In this document: positions 8,912 through 20,003 of the stretch, piece by piece
Numbering within the stretch: the first letter of the stretch is position 1
How the letters are laid out: each line of letters begins with the position of its first letter
DNA from: Kiritimatiellia bacterium
GTDB lineage: Bacteria; Verrucomicrobiota; Kiritimatiellia; RFP12; UBA1067
DNA: 64,000 nt
Reading direction: 5' to 3'
Assembly: GCA_033812795.1 (NCBI GenBank)
Contig: JAPXSY010000001.1
Coordinates: 2,282 to 66,281, forward strand
Made by a program: the position numbers and the translations under genes
The notes under the pieces: generated by a model
What the model saw: only the letters and a program-made list of their open reading frames with translations
Databases searched by the model: none
Told to the model about the DNA's origin: nothing

Positions 8912-10090
8912 CTAGAGCCGCTGGACGAATGCCGCCATGCGGTCCATCGCCTCTTTGAGCTGCTCCATGCCCGTCGCGTAGGCGCACCGCAGGAAACCCG
9001 CGCCGCAGGCACCGAATGCCGTGCCCGGTATACAGGCCACATTACATTCGTTCAGCAGACGGAGGGCGAAGGTGGTCGAATCCAACCCGGTCGACTGGAT
9101 GGAGGGAAAAACGTAAAACGCTCCGCGCGGCATGAAACAATCGAGCCCCATCTCATTGAGCGAGGCGACGATATAATTCCGGCGCAGATGATACGATTCG
9201 CGCATCGCGGCCACATCCGCCGCGCCATGCTGAAGCGCCTCGATGCCCGCCATCTGGGCCGTGGACGAGGCGCACATCATGCAGTACTGGTGAATCTTCA
9301 TCATGGCATCCGTCAGCGGCGCCGGTGCGCAGACATATCCCAAACGAAACCCTGTCATAGACCAAGCCTTGGAAAACCCGTTCAGGAAAATCAGTCGGTC
9401 GCGCAAGCGCGGGATGGCCGCTAAGGAATGGCGTCCGCCCTCGTACGTGAGTTCTGAATAGACCTCATCCGAAACCAGCAACAGGTCATGGCGGATGACG
9501 AAATCCGCCAGAGCCTCGGTATCCTCGCGCCGTAGCGTGGCGCCGGTCGGGTTGTTGGGAAAACTGACGAGCAGGACCCGCGTACGGGGCGTCACCTTCT
9601 TTTCCAGTTCCTCCACGGTGAGCCGGAACTCATCGCGGCGGAAGGTTTCGACCGCGACCGGCACACCCTGAGCCATGCGGATCAGGGGCGCGTAGGCCAC
9701 AAAGCAAGGCTCGTGGTACAGCACCTCATCTCCGGGCGATAACACGGCGCGCATCGCGATGTCGAATCCCTCGCTGACCCCAACGGTGACCAAAATCTCT
9801 GTCTGCCAATCATATTCCGCCCGGAAGGTGTCACGCATGTATCCGGCCAACTCCTGACGCAACTCGGGCATGCCGAGGTTCGAGGTGTACCGTGTCATGC
9901 CCCGTTCGAGCGAAGCGATCGCCTTCTCGCGGATATGCCAAGGCGTCAGGAAGTCCGGTTCGCCGATTCCGAGCGAGATCACATCTTTGCGGCTCGCCAC
10001 GATATCGAAAAAGTCGCGGATCCCCGATTTCGGCAGGTCACGCACCAGCGGGGAGACGAAATCATGGGCAGACTTGGAGACGGTCGTCAT
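8912..10090 (-). CDS. Class I/II pyridoxal-phosphate-dependent aminotransferase
   Basis: Aspartate/aromatic aminotransferase-like sequence with the PLP lysine context FSKAWSMTGFRLGY and NPTG motif; overlaps the upstream Lrp gene by 29 nt. Confidence 0.9.
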   Translation of the reverse strand: MTTVSKSAHDFVSPLVRDLPKSGIRDFFDIVASRKDVISLGIGEPDFLTPWHIREKAIASLERGMTRYTSNLGMPELRQELAGYMRDTFRAEYDWQTEILVTVGVSEGFDIAMRAVLSPGDEVLYHEPCFVAYAPLIRMAQGVPVAVETFRRDEFRLTVEELEKKVTPRTRVLLVSFPNNPTGATLRREDTEALADFVIRHDLLLVSDEVYSELTYEGGRHSLAAIPRLRDRLIFLNGFSKAWSMTGFRLGYVCAPAPLTDAMMKIHQYCMMCASSTAQMAGIEALQHGAADVAAMRESYHLRRNYIVASLNEMGLDCFMPRGAFYVFPSIQSTGLDSTTFALRLLNECNVACIPGTAFGACGAGFLRCAYATGMEQLKEAMDRMAAFVQRL

Positions 10091-10541
10091 GGCTTACGCC
10101 TTCCATCAGGACACCCTGATCCTTGTATGTTTTCAATATGAAGTGTGTGGTAGTCGAAAGCACACCGTCGAGCGAGGCAAGGTGTGCACTGACGAACTGG
10201 GCGACCTGCTGCAGGCTCTGTCCTTTGACGAACAACAGTAAATCGTAGGCGCCCGACATCAGACACATGGACTCCACCTGCGGGAACTTGCCGATCCGGT
10301 TGGCGATCCGGTCAAACCCGCCCTCGCGTTCCGGGCGGATGCGCAACTCGATGACTGCCCGCACATCTGTTTGCTCAATGCGGTCCTGATTCAACACAGC
10401 CTGGTACCCCCGGATCACCCCGTCGCGCTCGTATGCGGCGATCCGTTCGCGCACTTCCGTTTCGGTCAGCGCCAACTTTTTGGCCAGCGTCGCGTCCGAT
10501 TCACGCGCGTTCTTTTTCAGCAGTTCAAGCAATGTATCCAT
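10062..10541 (-). CDS. Lrp/AsnC family transcriptional regulator
   Basis: N-terminal HTH (LLELLKKNARESDATLAKKLALTETEVRERI) plus C-terminal RAM/ACT-like domain; the classic Lrp-aminotransferase pairing. Confidence 0.9.
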   Translation of the reverse strand: MDTLLELLKKNARESDATLAKKLALTETEVRERIAAYERDGVIRGYQAVLNQDRIEQTDVRAVIELRIRPEREGGFDRIANRIGKFPQVESMCLMSGAYDLLLFVKGQSLQQVAQFVSAHLASLDGVLSTTTHFILKTYKDQGVLMEGVSHDDRLQVCP

Positions 10542-10595: not shown

Positions 10596-11078
10596 TCAGA
10601 GCGGCTCAATCTGTTCACAATCGGTCGTGACGGTCACCGCCTGGCCAATCAGTTCAATGTTGAGTACGACCCGTACGGTTCCGGCCAGACGCTTCACGCG
10701 ACCCTCGATCCCCATGAACGGACCGCTGAGAATTCTCACCATGCGGCCCTCTGTCAGCGGCGGGCCGGCCTTGAGCGCGGGGTTGGCCCGTAACGCCCGC
10801 CGTACCATGATCAGCTCGCGCAGCAGACGCCGCGCGTTTATGGGCACCAGAATCCGGACCAGCAGGTTGGTCTGCAGCAACGCTAAGCGCTGGGCATCCG
10901 GGAAACAGGCAAACACATACCCGGGGAAAATCGGCACCCGGACCTGGATTTTCCGGCGCTGGACAATCCGTTGCCGTTCGCGCAACGGCAGGTAAAACGG
11001 GATACCGTAAAGCCGACAGTACTCCGTGACCTTCTTCTCCGTCCGCGGCTTGACAAACAGCACTTTCCAATTCTTCAT
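10596..11078 (-). CDS. NusG-paralog transcription antiterminator (UpxY/LoaP-like; NGN plus KOW domains)
   Basis: NGN-like N-terminus (WKVLFVKPRTEKKVTEYC) and KOW motif (GRMVRILSGPFMGIEGRV); the start lies 12 nt after the gyrA stop. Confidence 0.7.
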   Translation of the reverse strand: MKNWKVLFVKPRTEKKVTEYCRLYGIPFYLPLRERQRIVQRRKIQVRVPIFPGYVFACFPDAQRLALLQTNLLVRILVPINARRLLRELIMVRRALRANPALKAGPPLTEGRMVRILSGPFMGIEGRVKRLAGTVRVVLNIELIGQAVTVTTDCEQIEPL

Positions 11079-11090
11079 GATCCCGCCGCG

Positions 11091-13607
11091 TCAGCCCTGC
11101 GTCTCCTCCGTATCGGCATCGGTGTCGGTATCGATATCGGCATCGGTGTCGGCATCAGCGATACTGACGGACACGAGCGTATCCCCGTCATCCAAGCGGA
11201 CCAGCCGGACCCCCTGGGCCGTCCGCCCGCAGAGACGCACATCGTTTACCGGCGAGCGGATCATCATGCCCGCCGAAGTGATGGAAATAAAGGACTGCTC
11301 CTCCCGAACGGCGTGTGCGGCGACCACCTTGCCGTTACGTCCGGCCACATCCTTGATGGCGATCATGCCCTTGCCGCCGCGATTATGCGGCGTGAACTCG
11401 GAGAACATCGTGCGTTTACCATACCCGTTTTCGGTGGCGATCAACAGCGTGGCCTGATCATCCACCACGTCGAAACTACGGACCGCGTCTCCTGCCCCCA
11501 GCCGGATCCCGCGCACACCGGTGGCGGCCCGCCCCATGCGTCGCACCTGCTTCTCGTTAAACCGCATGGCCTGCCCGTTGGCGGTGATCAGCAGCACATC
11601 GTCCCCGGAACGGGTCAGCCGTACCTGAATCAACCGGTCATGTTCCCCAATGTTCAACGCCCGGATGCCGTTGCGGTTGATGTTGCGGTAATCGACGAGC
11701 GCGGTCTTTTTGACGGTGCCGCCTTCGGTGGCGAACATCACGTCCACGTCCTCCGCAAATGCCCGGATCGGCAGCAGGGCCGCGACCTGTTCGCCTTCCT
11801 GAAACTGCAACAGATTCACGATCGGTTTGCCGAACGAGGTGCGGGGCGCCTCGGGGATTTCGAAGGCGCGCTCCGCGAACACGCGGCCGAAGTTGGTGAA
11901 AAAGAGCAGGGTGTCATGGGTCTCGGCGACAAAGACCGTGGTGATCAGGTCCTCCTCCTTGATCGCGACACCGGTGATCCCGCGTCCGCCGCGCCTCTGC
12001 TCCCGGTAAACCGTCAACGGTACGCGTTTCACATATCCGCGCAGGCTGAGGGTGATGACGCACGGCTCGTCCGCAATGAGGTCCTCGATGTTTACCTCAC
12101 CCTCCAGAGGCACGATCTCCGTGCGCCGTTTGTCGTTCCGCCGAGCGTGGAGCACATACTGCGCCTTGAGTTCCGCCAGATCCTGTTTGATCAGTCCGTA
12201 GATTTTAGCGGGGTCCCGCAAGAGTTCCTGCAAATACGCGATCCGGTCGCATAACTCGCGGGACTCAGCCTCGACCTTATCACGCTCCAAACCGGTCAAC
12301 TGGTACAGACGCATCTCCAGAATCGCATCCACCTGCCGGTCCGAAAAGGCGAAACGCTCCACCAGCCGGACTTTCGCCTCTTCGCGGTTGGAAGACCCGC
12401 GAATCAGGGCGACCACCTCATCCAGATGGTCCAGCGCGACCAAGAGTCCGTCCAGAATATGTTTGCGCGCCTCGGCTTTCGCCAGATCGAACTGTGTGCG
12501 GCGGGTGATGACCTCGAACCGGTGATCCGTATAACTCCGGAACAGATCCTTGAGTGTCATCACCTTGGGCCGCCCCTGATCGATCGCCAGCATGTTGGCG
12601 CCGAACGTGGTCTGAAGCTGTGTGTGTTTGTACAGGTTGTTCAGCACCACCTGCGCCATCGCGCCGCGTTTGAGTTCCACCACCACCCGGATGCCGTCGC
12701 TGGAACTCTCGTCGCGAATGTCGGAGATACCCTCCAGCACTTTGCCGTTCACGAGATCGGCCATCTTTTCGATCATGCTGGCTTTGTTCACCGTGTACGG
12801 GATCTCGGTGATGAGGATCGCCTCTTTATTCTTGTACTCCACGATCTCCGCTTTGCCCCGGATAGTCAACGATCCACGCCCGAGTTTGTACATGGCCTCG
12901 ATGCCGCGTGTCCCGCACAGTATGGCACCGGTGGGGAAATCCGGCCCCTTGACAAATTGCATCAGCTCGTCAATCGTGCACTCCGGATTCTCGATGTAGT
13001 GGGTGAGCCCGTCCACGAGTTCGCCGAGGTTATGCGGCGGGATGTTGGTGGCCATGCCGACCGCAATACCGGTCGACCCGTTCAAGAGCAGATTCGGCAG
13101 CCGGGCGGGCAGGACAGTCGGTTCCTGAAACTCCTCATTGTAGTTGGGTTTGAAATCCACCGTCTCTTTTTCCAGATCATCCAGCATCTCCTCCGCCAGA
13201 CGATCCATGCGCACCTCCGTGTACCGCATGGCTGCCGCCGGATCCCCGTCGATGGAACCGAAATTCCCCTGCCCGTCCACCAGCGGATAGCGCATCGAGA
13301 ATTCCTGCGCCATGCGCACGATCGTGTCGTACACCGCCTGATCGCCGTGGGGATGGTATTTACCGATGACATCGCCCACCACACGTGCGGATTTCTTGTA
13401 TGGCTTGTTCGATGTGTTCCCCAGTTCGTTCATCGCGTACAATACCCGACGGTGCACCGGCTTCAGCCCGTCACGCGCGTCCGGCAAAGCGCGCCCGATG
13501 ATTACGCTCATGGAATAGTCGATATACGAGGAACTCATCTCGTCTTCGATATTGATGTTTTGCAACCCTTGGTCGGTCTGCTGGTCCGGCTGAATCCCGT
13601 CGCTCAT
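11091..13607 (-). CDS. gyrA: DNA gyrase subunit A
   Basis: QRDR/active-site region ([11 protein letters not shown]), the GyrA-box-like C-terminal beta-pinwheel repeats, and an acidic [16 protein letters not shown] tail encoded by a near-periodic hexanucleotide repeat at 11094..11160. Confidence 0.95.
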
Positions 13608-13749
13608 GATGACTCCGCTTTTGAACAGTGAAAGTGGGGCTCAGTATACCACATCAGCCGAAAAAAAAACACCTTTTCCCGAATCGGATCCTGTGGTATT
13701 TTACGGTATGTGAGAAGCGATTGAACCCTTTGTTGAGGAGCAAACCGAA

Positions 13750-14715
13750 ATGGATAACCGGACCCCCTGCCCGATCTGCCGCACCCCGAACATTTCGTAT
13801 GCCAGTGCCGGAGCCAACACCAGTGAAATCAACTGCCCGCGTTGCGGCCGCTATCAGATCCAGGCGTTCGCTGAAACCCAACTCCACAACAGCCCGCCCG
13901 CTTTTCCCCCGGCCCATCTGCTCTCCGGATTGTGCCGCAACACCTGGGACCATCTGGGGGAGAAAGTGTTGATCACCGTGGATTTGTTCAAGTCCTGGGC
14001 CGATCTGGAACGGGTCGCCAAACTCCCCGTACCGCGCGACACCGATGTGGTGACCAAGGGGGAATACTTGCTGAAGCACCTGCGCCGCCGATCGAAAACA
14101 CTGGCGGACAGGGTTTCGTTTACGCCCCATGAACTAGCGTGCGGGTTCTGCTCCACGAAAAACGAACTGCTTTTCTGCCTGCGTTATCTGGCAGACCGGG
14201 GGTGGGTGGAGGAATGTTCAGCCGCCAATCGCAAGGGACCTCCTCGTGACGCGATCACGTTTCGCCTGACGCCCGCCGGATGGGCGGCATTGGCCGCTCC
14301 GGCCACTCCGGCCCAACCACGCGCCGTGGTGTCGGTCATGCTGGATCGCGAAGACGAGTCTCTCTGGACGCAAGGGTTCGCCGCCGCGGCGCAGGCCGCC
14401 GGATATGTGGCGGAGCGGGTTGAGAACCGTGAACAGCTCAACAAAATTAATGACGAGTTGATCGTGTCGCTGCGCCGCGCCGCTTTCGTGATCGCGGATC
14501 TGACCGGACAGGCCCCCATGACCTATTTCGTTGCGGGGTTCGCCGGTGGACTCGGTAAGCCCGTCTTCTGGACTTGCGAGGAAAGCGAAGCCCGCGACAA
14601 ACGGTTGTGGCTGGAAACACGCCAGTCAATCATCACCACCTGGACGCGGGACAAGCCGGAGGTGTTCGCCGCGCGTCTCGCGCAACGTATCGAAGCCACC
14701 ATCCCCGGAGAATGA
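13750..14715 (+). CDS. Hypothetical protein: N-terminal Zn-ribbon, central winged-helix-like region, C-terminal nucleoside 2-deoxyribosyltransferase (NDT)-superfamily-like domain
   Basis: CPICRT..x20..CPRCGRY zinc ribbon. The C-terminal region VVSVMLDRED ... FVIADLTGQAPMTYFVAGFAGGLGKPVF resembles the NDT/DNPH1 D.GT.fE.GyA.alGKPv core, with Val in place of the catalytic Glu. GAGGAG SD 9 nt upstream of ATG; sigma70-like TTGAAC-N18-TATACC further upstream. Confidence 0.6.
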   Translation: MDNRTPCPICRTPNISYASAGANTSEINCPRCGRYQIQAFAETQLHNSPPAFPPAHLLSGLCRNTWDHLGEKVLITVDLFKSWADLERVAKLPVPRDTDVVTKGEYLLKHLRRRSKTLADRVSFTPHELACGFCSTKNELLFCLRYLADRGWVEECSAANRKGPPRDAITFRLTPAGWAALAAPATPAQPRAVVSVMLDREDESLWTQGFAAAAQAAGYVAERVENREQLNKINDELIVSLRRAAFVIADLTGQAPMTYFVAGFAGGLGKPVFWTCEESEARDKRLWLETRQSIITTWTRDKPEVFAARLAQRIEATIPGE

Positions 14716-14733: not shown

Positions 14734-15633
14734 TTAGGGAACGGCTCCGTCCCCTTCGCGATCCGTTTCGACGGGCTCGACATGCACCACGACATCCCGC
14801 ACCCCCGACTTGGCCGCCATGATCGCGTCCCGTACCTGATGCCCGACCGCATGGCCCTCGCGCACCGATAGGTCGCCGGGAACTTGGATATGCACCTCCA
14901 CGAAGTAATCGGTCCCGCTCTTACGGATCCGGCACGCGCTCACCGAGTCCACCTGAGGCACGCCGCGGGCCTCCCCCATCACCCGGAATCGCATCTCATC
15001 CCCCACATCCCCGTCGAGCATCTCATGGAACGCCTTCCGTAGAATGCGCACGGCGTTGAATACGATGATCCCGCACGCCAGCAGCGCGGCCCAATCATCC
15101 GCCTGGGCAAAACGGGGGCCACCCAGCAGCGCGAGGCTGATCCCCACGGCAGCCGCCGCAGAGGTCAGGGCGTCCGAACGGTGATGCCAAGCGTCGCCCT
15201 CCAGTGCGAGACTGTCCGTCGCACGACCGGCCCGTAGCACGGCCCGCGAGACGGCTTCTTTGACCAACACAACCATTAGCAGTACCGGCAACGTGTACCA
15301 CGCAGGCGAAGCGTGCGGCGTCAGCAGTTCGCGCACTGCCTGAAAAGCGATCAGCAGGGCCACTGCCAGTAAGGAAAAGCCGCTGAACACGCCGGCCAGA
15401 GATTCGATTTTACCGTGCCCGTACGGGTGACAGGCATCGGCCGGCCGGAGGGAAAAATGAAACCCGAGCCAAGTGACGGATGATGTGATGATGTCCCCTA
15501 AGGATTCCACCCCGTCAGCGATCAGCGCATAGCAGTTCCCCATCAGCCCCACCGTTATCTTGACCAGCATCAGGCTGATGTTGACGCCCAGCGTCAAAAA
15601 ACCGAGCCACCGAATGGATTTCGATTGCGACAT
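14734..15633 (-). CDS. Cation diffusion facilitator family divalent-metal efflux transporter
   Basis: Six TM helices, the HxxxD-type motifs (HHRSDALTS), and a C-terminal cytoplasmic domain. The start was chosen at internal ATG 15633 (MSQSKSIRWLG); the track ORF extends to 15669. Confidence 0.85.
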   Translation of the reverse strand: MSQSKSIRWLGFLTLGVNISLMLVKITVGLMGNCYALIADGVESLGDIITSSVTWLGFHFSLRPADACHPYGHGKIESLAGVFSGFSLLAVALLIAFQAVRELLTPHASPAWYTLPVLLMVVLVKEAVSRAVLRAGRATDSLALEGDAWHHRSDALTSAAAAVGISLALLGGPRFAQADDWAALLACGIIVFNAVRILRKAFHEMLDGDVGDEMRFRVMGEARGVPQVDSVSACRIRKSGTDYFVEVHIQVPGDLSVREGHAVGHQVRDAIMAAKSGVRDVVVHVEPVETDREGDGAVP

Positions 15634-15727
15634 ATCGGAACGATCACATAAAAGCCCCATACCCGTCAATCCAATCCGATCGTAAAGAATAACGCAGGGG
15701 AAAAAGTGCTACACGCACCTTCTCTTC

Positions 15728-18700
15728 TCACTGCGCGTAGACTTCGAGTTCATCGGGAACCCACTCGGTCATCCGGTTCTCATAGATCACGGGACCGCCC
15801 CATTTGCCGGTGGTGATGAGGTCGATGTCACCATCGCCATCAATGTCAACCGGCACGATGTTGAGGCCGGCGCTGACACCCTCGTCGTAGGTGACCACAT
15901 GCTTGCGGAAGACCGGATTCGGGCCGGGGGTGAAACGGTAGTAGAACACGCACAGCTTGCCGAAGGCATCGGGGTCGCCGCCGTTGTGGGCCATGAAACG
16001 CTTGCCGGCGATGACTTCCTTGTTGCCGTCGTTATCGACGTCGGCGAATGCAAGATAGTGCGGTTGCGACCAGGTGTCGTCGATCAGATGCTGACGCCAA
16101 GAGATGGTGCCGGATGCATCGCGCTGCTGTTCGTACCAGAAGATGCCGTGCTTGTGGGCCGCGCTGGTGATGAGATCGTTCAGGCCGTCTTTGTTGACAT
16201 CGAAAACGATGATGTTGGAGGTGTGCTCGACCTTGCCGTCTTTGCCGCCCAAGGCGATGGGGTGCTTTTTCCATGTGTCCTTACGGATGTCTTTCGGGGC
16301 CTCGTACCAAACGTTGGGCCGGATCACGTCAGGGCGTCCGTCGCCGTTGATGTCGCCAACGCCGGTGCCGAATGTCGTCTTGTCCATGGAGATCGTGTGG
16401 CGCACGTAGCCGGGCTGGCCGTTGGTCAGCGTGCCCGGTTCGTACCAGACGGTCACATGCGTGTCAGGCAGAAACTCCAGCGCCTTGCCGTCGCCGTCGA
16501 TATCGACCAGCGTGCCGGTTTCGTGGTTGCCCAGCGGGTCAATGACATGCTCGGGCCACAGCTCATTGGAACGGCCCAGCGTGTTTTCGTACCAGTAGGA
16601 GGTTTTCGAAAACCAGCAGGCCGCCAGAATGTCCGGCTTGCCGTCTTTGTTGACATCGACGACCAGATTGCAGAAGTCATCGGCGTAGCCTTTGCCATCC
16701 TCTCCGACGTTACTGGAAACGGTGCGGATGCGCACGGCCTTCCAGTCGGGCGCGAGGTAGAGATAGGGCCCCGCGGCGATGTCGAGTTTCCCGTCGCCGT
16801 TGAAATCGGCCACACAGCAGGCTTCCGAGCGGTAGGTGCCGATGCGGCGCGGCACGAAGGTCAGGGGCGTGAGCACGGAGCCGGGCGCTTTGTCCGGCAC
16901 ACCCACCGGGGTGTGCAGCGCGATGACTTTGAGGGACTTGAGCGCCTCGGTTTTAAGTTCGGGATCATCCAGCATCGGTGTGAGCGCGGCGACCGCCTCG
17001 GGGGTGGGCACGGTGCGCCAAGCACCTGCGACGAGGGCCTTCTCCTGCGTCCGCGTGGCCAGTGCGCTGGCTTCTCTGAGCATGGCGGCGCGACCAGCTT
17101 GGTCCTGCTCTTGATCGATCAGCCGGATATAACCGCGCAGCGCGATTACGCGCAGGCTGTTGTTGGGATAGGTTTTAGCCAATTGAAGCAACTTGGGGGC
17201 GACGGCCTTTCCCTTCCAGCCTGCCAGTACGCGCACGGCGTCATCGGCCACGGCGCGTTCGCTGTCGTCCACGGTGCGTTGGATCAACTCCAGTCCGGCT
17301 GGCGTGCCGGCCAAGCCGATCGCTCGCAACAGGCTGCTGCGGCGTTCGACACCGGCTCCGGCGAACAGCGGCAGAATGGCGGCGGTGGTTGCGTCCGGTT
17401 CGCGGCGTGAGCAGGCCATGAGCGCCTTTTCAGCGGCGCGCCGCTCTTGGGGATCGACGGCTTTGCAGAAGGCCGCGACGAGCGCCGGGATTTGTTTGTC
17501 GGTTGCGAGTTCGGTCAGCGCCTGGAATGCGGCGGTGCGCACGGTCGGCGCGGTGGCCGCGAGGTGTTCCGCGATGGCAGAGGCGGCACGCGGCGTTTTG
17601 CGGAAGGCCGCGACGCCCAGCAGGCGCGTGAGGGCGGCGTCGTTGGCCGGACGTCGCGCAAGCGCTTTCACGATCCGGGCGTCGGTCTTGGGATCGTCCA
17701 GCTTGATTAGGCTCCTGCGCGCCGCATCTGCCAGCGCGTCGTCCGTCTGGCCGAGCAGTGCGATCAGCGCATCCGCGTCATCGGCATCGCCGATATCGCC
17801 GAGTCCGGCGGCGGCTGCCAGCCGGGAGGGCGCATCAAGACCGTCTTTCAGCGCGGCACGCACCAGCGGTGCACCGGCGCGTTTCTTGGCATGGACCAGG
17901 GCCTGTACGACAGCGAGGCGGCCCTGCGGTTCGAGTGCTTTCATCAAGTCTTCACCACGCCGTTTCAGTACCTTGTCCGGGAGTTGGGCGGTGAGACGGG
18001 CGGCGGTGCCACGCCACACTGCCGAAGCATGGTTCAATGCGGCGGGCAACAGCGTGCGCGCGCGGTCGGGGTCAGCGGTGACGCGTGCGCAAAAGGCGGC
18101 CAGCCGGATGTGGTCCGCCAGGCGGGTGTCGTCCGCGACTCGCGCATAGAGCGCGAGGGCCTGCTTTTTGTCGCCGCGCGCGAGCAGCGTCTCTGCGGCC
18201 ACGAGCGTGGCATCGGCCGTGATTGCGTCTTGCGGTGCGGCGGCCAGCGCAGCCAATGCGCGGGGGGTGGCGAGTTTGCCGAGGTACGCCAACGCGGCGG
18301 AACGCACCGGTTGCGGACGGTCGACCAGCGCGAGGATCGCGGCTTCAGCAGCGGTGTCTGCGCGACGGGTCAGGGCGGCGATCACACCGGCCAGTTCGCG
18401 GCCGTCCAGCATGGTGAGCGCGGCGCGCAGGGCGGCATCGGCTTCAGGCAGGCCGAGGGCTTCCAGCAATAGGCAGGCGTTATCGAAGGTCTCGGGACGC
18501 GCGAGCTGGGCAGTGAGCGTCGGGATGGCGGCGGCTGTGGCGCTGACCAGCAGGGTTTGGCGCGCGCTGTCTTTTTCGGCCGGGGTGCCCTCGGCAAGCT
18601 GTCGGAGTAGCGCGGCCTCATCGGCGGCAAGCGGACGCACTGCGAACAGCGCGGCCGTGAAGAGCGGCAGGATGACAGCCTTGCGGCGTGGCACGTATGT

Positions 18701-18733
18701 AAAGAGACGGGCGGTGAGGGCAACAATGGACAT
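15728..18733 (-). CDS. Large secreted protein: N-terminal HEAT/ARM-like repeats, C-terminal FG-GAP/VCBS beta-propeller repeats
   Basis: Ala/Leu-rich helical repeats in the N-terminal half. At least 7 FG-GAP-like Ca-binding repeats follow (FNGDGKLDIA, VDVNKDGKPDIL, VDIDGDGKAL, DINGDGRPDV, DVNKDGLNDL, DVDNDGNKEV, VDIDGDGDIDL). Signal peptide after ATG 18733 with a GAGGT SD. Confidence 0.8.
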   Translation of the reverse strand: MSIVALTARLFTYVPRRKAVILPLFTAALFAVRPLAADEAALLRQLAEGTPAEKDSARQTLLVSATAAAIPTLTAQLARPETFDNACLLLEALGLPEADAALRAALTMLDGRELAGVIAALTRRADTAAEAAILALVDRPQPVRSAALAYLGKLATPRALAALAAAPQDAITADATLVAAETLLARGDKKQALALYARVADDTRLADHIRLAAFCARVTADPDRARTLLPAALNHASAVWRGTAARLTAQLPDKVLKRRGEDLMKALEPQGRLAVVQALVHAKKRAGAPLVRAALKDGLDAPSRLAAAAGLGDIGDADDADALIALLGQTDDALADAARRSLIKLDDPKTDARIVKALARRPANDAALTRLLGVAAFRKTPRAASAIAEHLAATAPTVRTAAFQALTELATDKQIPALVAAFCKAVDPQERRAAEKALMACSRREPDATTAAILPLFAGAGVERRSSLLRAIGLAGTPAGLELIQRTVDDSERAVADDAVRVLAGWKGKAVAPKLLQLAKTYPNNSLRVIALRGYIRLIDQEQDQAGRAAMLREASALATRTQEKALVAGAWRTVPTPEAVAALTPMLDDPELKTEALKSLKVIALHTPVGVPDKAPGSVLTPLTFVPRRIGTYRSEACCVADFNGDGKLDIAAGPYLYLAPDWKAVRIRTVSSNVGEDGKGYADDFCNLVVDVNKDGKPDILAACWFSKTSYWYENTLGRSNELWPEHVIDPLGNHETGTLVDIDGDGKALEFLPDTHVTVWYEPGTLTNGQPGYVRHTISMDKTTFGTGVGDINGDGRPDVIRPNVWYEAPKDIRKDTWKKHPIALGGKDGKVEHTSNIIVFDVNKDGLNDLITSAAHKHGIFWYEQQRDASGTISWRQHLIDDTWSQPHYLAFADVDNDGNKEVIAGKRFMAHNGGDPDAFGKLCVFYYRFTPGPNPVFRKHVVTYDEGVSAGLNIVPVDIDGDGDIDLITTGKWGGPVIYENRMTEWVPDELEVYAQ

Positions 18734-18752
18734 GGTGTAACCTCGTACAGGA

Positions 18753-20003
18753 TTAGATGGACCAGGGAGCGCGGTTTGAACGGTGGATGAGGCGGTTGGC
18801 CTCGGCATCGTTGACAAACGCAAGCGCGGCGGGATCAAAGGTGAGTTCGCGCTTCAAGTGATAAGCGATCGTGGCGGCATGGCAGGCAACGTGCGTGATG
18901 TGCAGCGCGTCGGCCGGTGCGGTCGGCGTTTGGCGCGACCTGACGCAGGCGATGAACTCGGCCGGATGGGCCACCGGACGCATCCAGCTTTCGGATTGGA
19001 TGGCGCGGGTGTCCAGCAGGGTTGGCGAGGAGACTTGGATGTCACCCGAGTCGTCAGTCTCGACCCAACCCTCATCGCCCTCGAAGCGCACGGCGCACGA
19101 GTTACGGAAACCTTTCTGACGCATCACCACCTGGATGCCGTCGGCATACCAGGCATGTACGGTGGTGTCGTCAATCGGCTTGTAGCGGACCGGCGTGGTG
19201 TGTTCGCGGTTGAGCGCCATCTGGCAGAGGTCGAGGGTATGGCTGCCCCATTCGGTGAGCTCGCCGTGGTAGTCGTATTCGCCGCCCCAGTGCTTGAGGT
19301 AAGCGTTGTTGTAGGGGCGCCAAGGGGCAGGGCCGAGCCACATGTCCCAGTCGATCTCGTCGACCGGCGGCATTTTCTCTTCGGGCAGAAAGTGGTTGGT
19401 CGCCGAGCGTCCCATACCCGCTGCCATACCGGCGTGTAACGTGTGGATGCGTCCGAGGCGTCCGCTCTTGACCAGTGACATGGCGGTCATGAAATTGCCG
19501 ACGGTGCGGCGCTGTACTCCGCCTTGATACACGCGGTGGTAGCGCGCGGCTGCCTTCACGACGGCCTCGCCCTCGTGGATGGAGAGCGAGATCGGCTTTT
19601 CGCAGTAGACGTCCTTACCGGCCTGCATGGAGCAGATCGCGAGGCGCGCATGCCAGCGGTCACCGGTCGCGATGTAGAGGGCGTCGATGTCCTTACGTGC
19701 GAGAAGATCACGGAAGTCGCGGTAGGCCGTGCAGTCTGTGTTGCCGTTAAAGGTGTCGACCGTGGCCTTGGCGCGTTCGCGCCGTTCGCGCACCGCATCG
19801 CAGACCGCAAGCATACGGGTGCCGGGCTGGTTCAGGAAAACCGGCAGCATTTGCTTGGTACGGCTGCCGCAGCCGATGACACCCATCGTGACGGTGGCCG
19901 ACGGTGCAGTCGGATTTGCACGCGCGACAGCGGTGCCGGCGACGGTGGTGAACGCAGCGGCGCGTAACAAAAATCCGCGCCGGTTGATTGAAGAACGCAA
20001 CAT
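18753..20003 (-). CDS. Gfo/Idh/MocA family oxidoreductase with Tat signal
   Basis: NRRGFLLRAAAFTTVAG Tat signal and Rossmann motif MGVIGCGSRTKQ; a paralog of 4900..6150. Confidence 0.85.
   Translation of the reverse strand: MLRSSINRRGFLLRAAAFTTVAGTAVARANPTAPSATVTMGVIGCGSRTKQMLPVFLNQPGTRMLAVCDAVRERRERAKATVDTFNGNTDCTAYRDFRDLLARKDIDALYIATGDRWHARLAICSMQAGKDVYCEKPISLSIHEGEAVVKAAARYHRVYQGGVQRRTVGNFMTAMSLVKSGRLGRIHTLHAGMAAGMGRSATNHFLPEEKMPPVDEIDWDMWLGPAPWRPYNNAYLKHWGGEYDYHGELTEWGSHTLDLCQMALNREHTTPVRYKPIDDTTVHAWYADGIQVVMRQKGFRNSCAVRFEGDEGWVETDDSGDIQVSSPTLLDTRAIQSESWMRPVAHPAEFIACVRSRQTPTAPADALHITHVACHAATIAYHLKRELTFDPAALAFVNDAEANRLIHRSNRAPWSI

Follow-up and report, generated by a model that had tools for sequence, protein, structure and literature searches.

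Introduction

In DNPH1 (Rcl) and in the nucleoside 2-deoxyribosyltransferases (NDTs) the Glu of an [FY]-E-x-G motif, GYELG in Rcl, is the covalent nucleophile. Two regulators, PurR of B. subtilis and NrtR, join a winged helix-turn-helix (wHTH) to an inactive phosphoribosyltransferase (PRTase) fold and to a Nudix-like domain, respectively, and both DNA binding and ligand binding have been demonstrated for them. [quoted passage not shown] In the effectors of type II retrons an NDT-like domain and a DNA-binding domain belong to the same polypeptide chain (Mestre et al. 2020, PMC7736814), and DUF4062, recently described as a TIR-like NADase, is coupled in the system Swarozyc to an auxiliary helix-turn-helix (HTH)/winged domain which senses the phage portal (bioRxiv 10.64898/2026.05.01.722283). 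The gene described here encodes a 321-aa protein in which a zinc ribbon and a MarR-like winged helix precede a domain of the NDT/DNPH1/TIR class. It is located on a stretch of 64,000 nucleotides (the window) of Kiritimatiellia bacterium, assembly GCA_033812795.1, contig JAPXSY010000001.1, positions 2,282 to 66,281.

The clade to which the gene belongs is, with high confidence, a degenerate derivative nested in a large mobile family (below, the parent family), an assessment that covers the architecture, the offshoot status and the vertical inheritance. The protein is read here as a putative pseudoenzyme sensor of the TIR/DrHyd class, an inactivated branch of that unnamed family. Loci are denoted by L-numbers.

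Domain architecture and fold

A model was computed with AlphaFold2 from an alignment of 129 sequences and is confident (mean pLDDT 92.3, pTM 0.73). It shows four regions, a three-stranded zinc ribbon, a helical region, a winged helix and a beta-alpha-beta Rossmannoid, placed in the window as follows.

13750 to 14715, forward strand: complete coding sequence, 321 aa plus stop, from the list of open reading frames (ORFs), backed by homologues and by the ratio of nonsynonymous to synonymous substitution rates (dN/dS)
13750 to 13863, forward strand: C4 zinc ribbon, residues 1-38 (C7, C10, C29, C32), cysteines invariant, present in the model
13864 to 14034, forward strand: helical region, residues 39-95, with clade-specific inserts, the best-conserved part within the clade
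14035 to 14295, forward strand: MarR-like winged helix-turn-helix, residues 96-182, modelled as H-S-H-H-S-S
14320 to 14703, forward strand: C-terminal NDT/DNPH1/TIR-class Rossmannoid domain, residues 191-318, catalytically degenerate by its motifs
14530 to 14532, forward strand: codon GTT for Val261, at the position of the catalytic Glu of NDT and DNPH1 and of the invariant Glu of the parent family

The three beta-strands of the ribbon are modelled with pLDDT >90, and its profile hints are weak (Lar_restr_allev, E=0.057, and ECs_2282 CxxC). In the winged helix, H1 is basic (LKHLRRRSK), residues 137-149 form a recognition-type helix, the wing loop is rich in Gly, Pro, Arg and Lys, and the LTPxGW motif is present; the fold is of the MarR type, but at the sequence level the protein is not a MarR. 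The C-terminal domain is a Rossmannoid with a five-stranded parallel sheet of the NDT/DNPH1 type. Since PDB searches yielded nothing meaningful with the protein alone and marginal Rcl matches (E ~0.1) with the family profile, structure comparison was needed, and the top match in Foldseek was DNPH1/Rcl (prob 1.0, TMt 0.6-0.7). The model and this ranking confirm the three-domain architecture which an earlier note, made from the sequence alone, had proposed. The CPICRT...CPRCGRY cysteines and the core AFVIADLTGQAPMTYFVAGFAGGLGKPVF are present as it had described them, and the C-terminal domain was placed in the fold class that it had named, not in an unrelated fold.

The protein does not qualify as a genuine NDT or DNPH1, since its match to PF05014 (Nuc_deoxyrib_tr) is sub-threshold (E=0.0018, 18.8 bits, below the 28.8 cut-off, residues 222-280 only) and the nucleophile is absent: profile alignment to Rcl sets Val261 opposite the Glu of GYELG, a position that varies in the clade. 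Fusion to a zinc ribbon and a winged helix further distinguishes the domain from both. It is also not a TIR NADase of the TIR-DrHyd-SLOG class (PMC9503650), because no TIR-type profile in Pfam, including TIR, TIR_2 and DUF4062, was matched at E<=10 and the conserved catalytic Glu of a TIR-like fold is missing; an immune-operon context is likewise absent. The 'Effector/TIR' model of PADLOC matched with E=7e-5 over 51 residues.

Type II retron effectors carry the NDT domain N-terminally, have no zinc ribbon and always lie next to a reverse transcriptase and a non-coding RNA. The protein does not belong to them: its domains come in the opposite order, and the gene is not flanked by a reverse transcriptase, its immediate neighbours being gyrA and a CDF gene (other ORFs of the window were not scanned); Rfam gave no match in the window. 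Swarozyc resembles the architecture in that one polypeptide contains both a TIR-like domain and a sensor module of the winged-helix type, and genes of the parent family adjoin DUF4062 genes in L044 and L047. It differs in the domain family (DUF4062, not PF05014-like), in the domain order and in its essential catalytic Glu, which the window protein lacks.

The parent family

An exhaustive HMMER search returned 4,799 representatives at E<=1e-3 and 2,308 at E<=1e-10, mostly of about 300 aa and collinear with the window protein over the full length of the three domains, at about 30% identity (26-36%). With a single member as query, 5,289 clusters were obtained at E<=1e-20; in the word-indexed database a profile from a broad alignment mainly re-found the clade, and a single distant member was the better query. 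The sources include Thorarchaeota, Gammaproteobacteria and Magnetococcales. Among 70 sampled members PF05014 matched 69 at E<=0.01 (best 4e-7), the PADLOC TIR effector model matched all 70, and TIR_2 matched one weakly. No Pfam family, NCBIfam name or paper was found for the full architecture of zinc ribbon, wHTH and NDT/TIR-like domain. Thousands of its members are recorded as 'hypothetical proteins', and some of its records from the Prokaryotic Genome Annotation Pipeline (PGAP) are labelled 'nucleoside 2-deoxyribosyltransferase'.

Motifs were counted in 142 representatives. E261 and G263 are invariant (142/142 each), strand 1 reads F193-V-A195-M196-x-F198 (FVAMxF) at 135-140 of 142 (F193 in 140, M196 in 138), and H287-F288-D289 (HFD) is kept in 127-139 (H287 in 127, D289 in 139). 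The invariant Glu together with FVAMxF and HFD makes it probable that the C-terminal domain of the parent family acts as an N-glycosidase effector. The N-terminal half is hypervariable and sensor-like; mean pairwise identity is 0.39 in the ribbon, 0.20 in the helical region, 0.24 in the winged helix and 0.51 in the NDT-like domain. By analogy, a Swarozyc-type mechanism would be a plausible model for this family.

Genes of the parent family were found on 21 plasmids of six genera, among them a conjugative Bradyrhizobium plasmid, where the gene lies among a helicase, a ThiF-family gene and an AAA ATPase, and a Hydrogenimonas plasmid, where it adjoins an ATPase and an HNH endonuclease. A further 57 loci are on viral or prophage contigs; INPHARED phage genomes held no homologue of the parent-family member used as query. 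Chromosomal neighbours are DUF4062 (L047), DUF4062-NACHT (L044), DUF3644 (L050), Phage_Nu1/DUF4160 (L042), DUF4917 with a Type ISP restriction enzyme and a resolvase (L048), and SIR2 with a Phd/YefM antitoxin (L049). Such conflict-type contexts, in defence islands and on plasmids and prophage contigs, and the matches to the PADLOC TIR effector model would suit an explanation in which the clade protein is still a single-gene anti-phage or abortive-infection module, with an N-terminal sensor and a C-terminal effector that acts by residual catalysis, ligand sequestration or oligomerisation. The monocistronic gene, which has no fixed partner across the clade, would fit it as well. The clade data bearing on this explanation are given in the following sections.

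In several prophage-type contigs among L063-L066 and L068, which are uncultivated virus genomes (UViGs) of IMG/VR derived from isolate genomes, the parent-family gene lies about 3-4 kb or less from a contig end. A near-end position in a prophage is typical for accessory or defence 'moron' genes.

The neighbours of parent-family genes include NAD-related conflict domains, namely DUF4062 (L047:8956-9951), DUF4062-NACHT-FGE-sulfatase (L044:184-3555), DUF4917 (L048:6957-7997) and SIR2 (L049:6964-7713), and in L020 (6985-7719) and L021 the Kiritimatiellia orthologue is closely followed by a CobB-like SIR2 gene. This NAD/ADP-ribose theme may be a recurring pattern or a coincidence.

Catalytic signature and constraint in the clade

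None of the hallmarks of the parent family (E261/FVAMxF/HFD, an acidic protein with a hypervariable N-terminal half, taxonomic scatter including archaea, mobile contexts) characterizes the clade, for which motifs were counted in 84 full-length members. Position 261, Val in the window protein, is E43/Q28/A5/V2/L2/T1; strand 1 has changed from FVAMxF to [AV]-V-[AST]-L-x-[LPV]; and in HFD the clade has W, F, L or M in place of His287 and L, V or I in place of Phe288. In a neighbour-joining (NJ) tree the nearest outgroups have Glu at position 261, basal lineages of the clade Gln, the subclade of the window protein Ala or Val, and the others Glu, Asp or Gly. Position 261 is unconstrained in the clade, because E, Q, A, V, D and G all occur across the tree. 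Both this variability and the disappearance of FVAMxF and HFD agree with the view of the earlier note that the C-terminal domain may be non-catalytic, and a loss of catalysis in the clade is deduced from the sequences.

Other residues of the domain are fixed. D250, F260, G267, W274, R291, Q292 and W298 occur in all 84 members. The zinc-ribbon cysteines, LTPxGW, D250, G263, G267, W274, Q292 and W298 are shared with the parent family, and the clade has two invariants of its own, E277 (82/84), where the parent family has R/K, and K270, where it has L/I.

The pattern of constraint is inverted in the clade, where the N-terminal half is now the most conserved: mean pairwise identity is 0.66 in the ribbon, 0.79 in the helical region, 0.69 in the winged helix and 0.65 in the NDT-like domain. 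Clade-specific inserts with the invariants N47, P50, F52-P54, S82-W83 and P95-D99 are missing from 128-134 of the 142 parent-family sequences, and the net charge is +2.7 in the clade versus -5.9 in the parent family.

These invariant inserts suggest a fixed macromolecular partner and so speak for a ligand-independent adaptor or structural factor, in which the Rossmannoid domain would only oligomerise while the N-terminal module binds a host protein or nucleic acid, in a housekeeping role apart from nucleosides. NDT, DNPH1 and TIR domains are obligate oligomers, and the neighbourhood of the gene varies, as this explanation would allow. It is quite improbable, since the pocket-lining residues are invariant despite the loss of catalysis, which is more easily understood through ligand binding, and since the coupling to a symporter gene (below) is recurrent.

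Distribution, inheritance and selection

A word-indexed search returned 97 homologues, nearly all full length and mostly of 50-70% identity (range 50-100%); all named sources are Kiritimatiellota. In a scan of one genome per GTDB species, orthologues were found at 34 loci (55-91% identity), all in metagenome-assembled genomes (MAGs) of Kiritimatiellia or the Planctomycetes-Verrucomicrobia-Chlamydiae (PVC) group. Adjacency to gyrA is common to the window, L008, L010 and L014, and L008 also has the CDF gene beside the orthologue. In the synteny comparison which the earlier note had proposed, the gene is not universally placed beside gyrA in a known housekeeping role. A GFO/IDH/MocA-like gene recurs downstream in the window, L012, L018, L020 and L021, which points to gradual rearrangement around an inherited gene.

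The G+C content of the gene (GC, 61.8%) and of its third codon positions (GC3, 72.7%) matches that of the neighbours. Compared with the 91%-identical orthologue of L008, dN/dS is 0.12 (N-terminal half 0.11, C-terminal half 0.135), and gyrA gives 0.14; compared with L010 it is about 0.10, with dS >2 (saturated). The viral contigs of IMG/VR contain no clade member, and the contexts of the clade are chromosomal, with housekeeping or metabolic neighbours. The clade is vertically inherited in Kiritimatiellia, and both halves of the protein are under strong purifying selection. Recent horizontal acquisition is rejected on account of the native GC and GC3, the gyrA adjacency at saturated dS, the 34 species-level orthologues and the lack of members on viral contigs. 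The position of the gene, alone between housekeeping genes of the opposite strand, had been correctly noted earlier, but its interpretation as an arrangement typical of an acquired accessory gene is not supported by these data, including the dN/dS of 0.12.

A decaying relic of a once-active mobile gene, a pseudogene in the making, would account for the lost catalytic motifs. It is excluded by the selection data and is extremely improbable: the ORF is intact in at least 84 members at 50-91% identity, 101 positions are >=95% conserved, and each half has a dN/dS of about 0.1, also where dS is saturated. The anti-phage module introduced above is unlikely. Long vertical inheritance with native composition and low dN/dS, the lack of members on viral contigs, and the housekeeping or metabolic neighbours speak against it, as do the variable catalytic Glu, the loss of the other invariant motifs and an N-terminal half that is the most conserved part of the protein (0.79), the opposite of an arms-race pattern. 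The earlier note had offered either a sensor or regulator or a single-gene defence or stress module; the first option is favoured, and defence fits the contexts of the parent family, not those of the clade.

Linkage to a nucleoside:H+ symporter

A gene for a 410-450-aa Nucleoside H+ symporter (PF03825, E=2e-72) lies immediately upstream and co-directional in 10 of the 27 species-level loci with enough upstream sequence. The symporter stop and the start of the gene overlap by 8 bp in four loci; L025 and L032, like the near-identical L006, have a gap of 33-41 bp, L017 has one of 99 bp, and an FGGY kinase is placed between the two genes in two loci. The symporter-linked loci belong to three subclades in which the other flanks differ, and the two genes are therefore regarded as a functionally coupled pair, not as residual synteny alone.

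The operon and its 8-bp overlaps would also suit an active nucleoside/nucleotide N-glycosidase or transferase with relocated catalytic residues (e.g. Glu277, end of strand beta-4) which salvages the nucleosides imported by the symporter. The new clade invariants E277 and K270, the retention of D250, R291 and Q292, and the DNPH1-like fold are consistent with such an enzyme. It is nevertheless given a low probability, since even symporter-linked members show free drift at the nucleophile position (E, Q, A, V, D, G), FVAMxF in strand 1 and HFD of the parent family are gone, and the highly conserved half with zinc ribbon and winged helix would be superfluous for a salvage enzyme.

Clustering of the flanking ORFs revealed no clade-wide operon partner; only the symporter recurs across subclades. 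One subclade has a receiver-domain gene 4 bp downstream of the orthologue. In the basal subclade (L002:7627-8004, L003, L035, L037) a Cys-rich ORF of 123-125 aa with CxxC motifs, which has no Pfam match, shares an ATGA (4 bp) overlap with the start of the orthologue, pointing to a small partner protein with coupled translation in the basal lineage.

The symporter promoter, TTGACA-N17-TGATAAT, is strongly conserved and is followed by a long, GC-rich, conserved 5' leader of about 115 nt (L019:4622-4781, L017, L020, L024, L027, L028, L029) or about 70 nt (L006:6606-6714, L032). Rfam found no known family in the symporter leaders. RNAalifold gave a plausible two-hairpin fold for seven of them; these sequences are so similar that there is little covariation. 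The leader may act as a cis-regulatory RNA, so far undescribed, in the control of nucleoside uptake.

Proposed function

The mechanism preferred here, tentatively and with somewhat less than even confidence, is that of a non-catalytic sensor of a nucleoside or nucleotide ligand, or a one-component regulator. The gene represents a Kiritimatiellia-specific, vertically inherited offshoot of the mobile parent family in which the catalytic signature has decayed. The former active-site pocket would bind a nucleoside- or nucleotide-type ligand without cleaving it, with the pocket-wall and ribose-side residues D250, F260, G263/G267, W274, R291, Q292 and W298 kept. With Glu in place of R/K at 277, an uncharged nucleoside would be a better ligand than one with a phosphate. 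The now-basic, highly conserved module of zinc ribbon and MarR-like domain would relay the signal, with DNA or a fixed partner in the host as its target. The process served may be nucleoside uptake or salvage, because the gene occupies a recurrent, translationally coupled position downstream of the symporter. The design logic would be that of PurR and NrtR, a wHTH fused to a catalytically dead nucleotide-enzyme fold as effector-binding domain. The folds of those proteins are unrelated to that of the window protein, and ligand binding and regulatory output of the clade protein are predictions. A literature search found no paper on the three-domain architecture or on a nucleoside regulator of Kiritimatiellota.

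Several observations weigh against this mechanism. The winged helix could bind a protein instead of DNA, by analogy with the DUF4062 system Swarozyc, and the MarR, MarR_2 and HTH_27 profiles did not match the window protein (Pfam, E<=10). About half of the clade members keep Glu at 261, and some may therefore retain activity; the NJ tree on which the drift of this position was followed is unbootstrapped. The 64-kb window has no symporter homologue, and the linkage is missing in 17 of the 27 assessable loci, so that it may be partly inherited synteny. Finally, 33 upstream regions in 23 groups contained no k-mer or palindrome across subclades above shuffled controls; operators could differ between subclades. 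This search for a shared operator covered the regions upstream of both the gene and the symporter operon.

Promoter and regulatory signals

Three elements were located upstream of the gene.

13735 to 13740, forward strand: Shine-Dalgarno sequence GAGGAG, 9 nt upstream of the ATG, kept in L008 and L010, GGAGG in L014
13692 to 13702, forward strand: candidate extended -10 element, TGTGGTATTTT (TGnTAnnnT), from aligned upstream regions
13621 to 13650, no strand assigned: TTGAAC-N18-TATACC, conserved in L008, L010 and L014, read on the minus strand as the -10 of gyrA

The Shine-Dalgarno sequence is good and conserved, and the earlier note had called it strong. The element TTGAAC-N18-TATACC, there taken for the promoter of the gene, is rejected as such by the consensus scan, and its TATA fits the gyrA strand better. 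Its minus-strand reading is TATACT, TATACT, TATGCT and TATACT in the four genomes, about 38 nt upstream of the gyrA ATG, and is followed by a conserved GCGGAG Shine-Dalgarno sequence; for these reasons the element is probably the promoter and leader of gyrA. The position of TGnTAnnnT is kept in the four gyrA-linked genomes, and the motif at 13692-13702 is a candidate for the gene's own extended -10 promoter; the consensus promoter scan, which needs a -35, does not report it. No terminator-like site was found, and Rfam had no match in the 5' region of the gene or elsewhere in the window.

Neighbouring genes

Within the window the gene is monocistronic. It diverges from gyrA and converges with the CDF gene across an 18-nt gap.

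11091 to 13607, reverse strand: gyrA, flanking the gene of 13750-14715
14734 to 15669, reverse strand: CDF gene with Cation_efflux and ZT_dimer domains, on the other flank

The C-terminal end of GyrA (11091-11170, reverse strand) is a low-complexity, acidic Asp/Thr repeat tail, and the antisense of the GC-rich gyrA 3' region yields long spurious ORFs, e.g. 10971-12254 (forward strand). Directly downstream of gyrA lies a 160-aa paralogue of the NusG N-terminal domain (PF02357, E=2.5e-8; 10596-11078, reverse strand), which may be a specialised antiterminator, and the same block includes a 159-aa ORF (10062-10541, reverse strand), tentatively labelled AsnC/Lrp-like. The order aminotransferase, 159-aa ORF, NusG-like gene, gyrA is kept in L008 and L010. 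On the other side, a secreted-looking protein of 1,036 aa with HEAT repeats followed by FG-GAP/VCBS-type repeats (15728-18838, reverse strand) is placed between the CDF gene and the GFO/IDH/MocA-like oxidoreductase, which has a twin-arginine-like signal; L020 and L021 lack it at the corresponding position.

Significance

A more far-reaching joint proposal, which is doubtful at present, is that the parent family is an undescribed, abundant, single-protein immune system of the TIR/DNPH1 class and that an early capture in Kiritimatiellia was followed by inactivation and conversion into a lineage-wide, nucleoside-responsive transcription factor controlling a NupG-type symporter operon. If true, this would document the domestication of an immune effector into a regulator of metabolism, and the clade would be the end state of a path from capture through loss of catalysis to a sensor half frozen for housekeeping signalling, which has often been proposed and rarely traced with clear polarity. 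The parent family itself is very large and shows immune-type genomic behaviour, and the libraries searched list it neither as a Pfam family nor under the name of a defence system. On the present reading, the annotation 'nucleoside 2-deoxyribosyltransferase', already given to some of its records, is inadvisable for these proteins. For the poorly studied Kiritimatiellia, the gene is a candidate regulator of nucleoside uptake.

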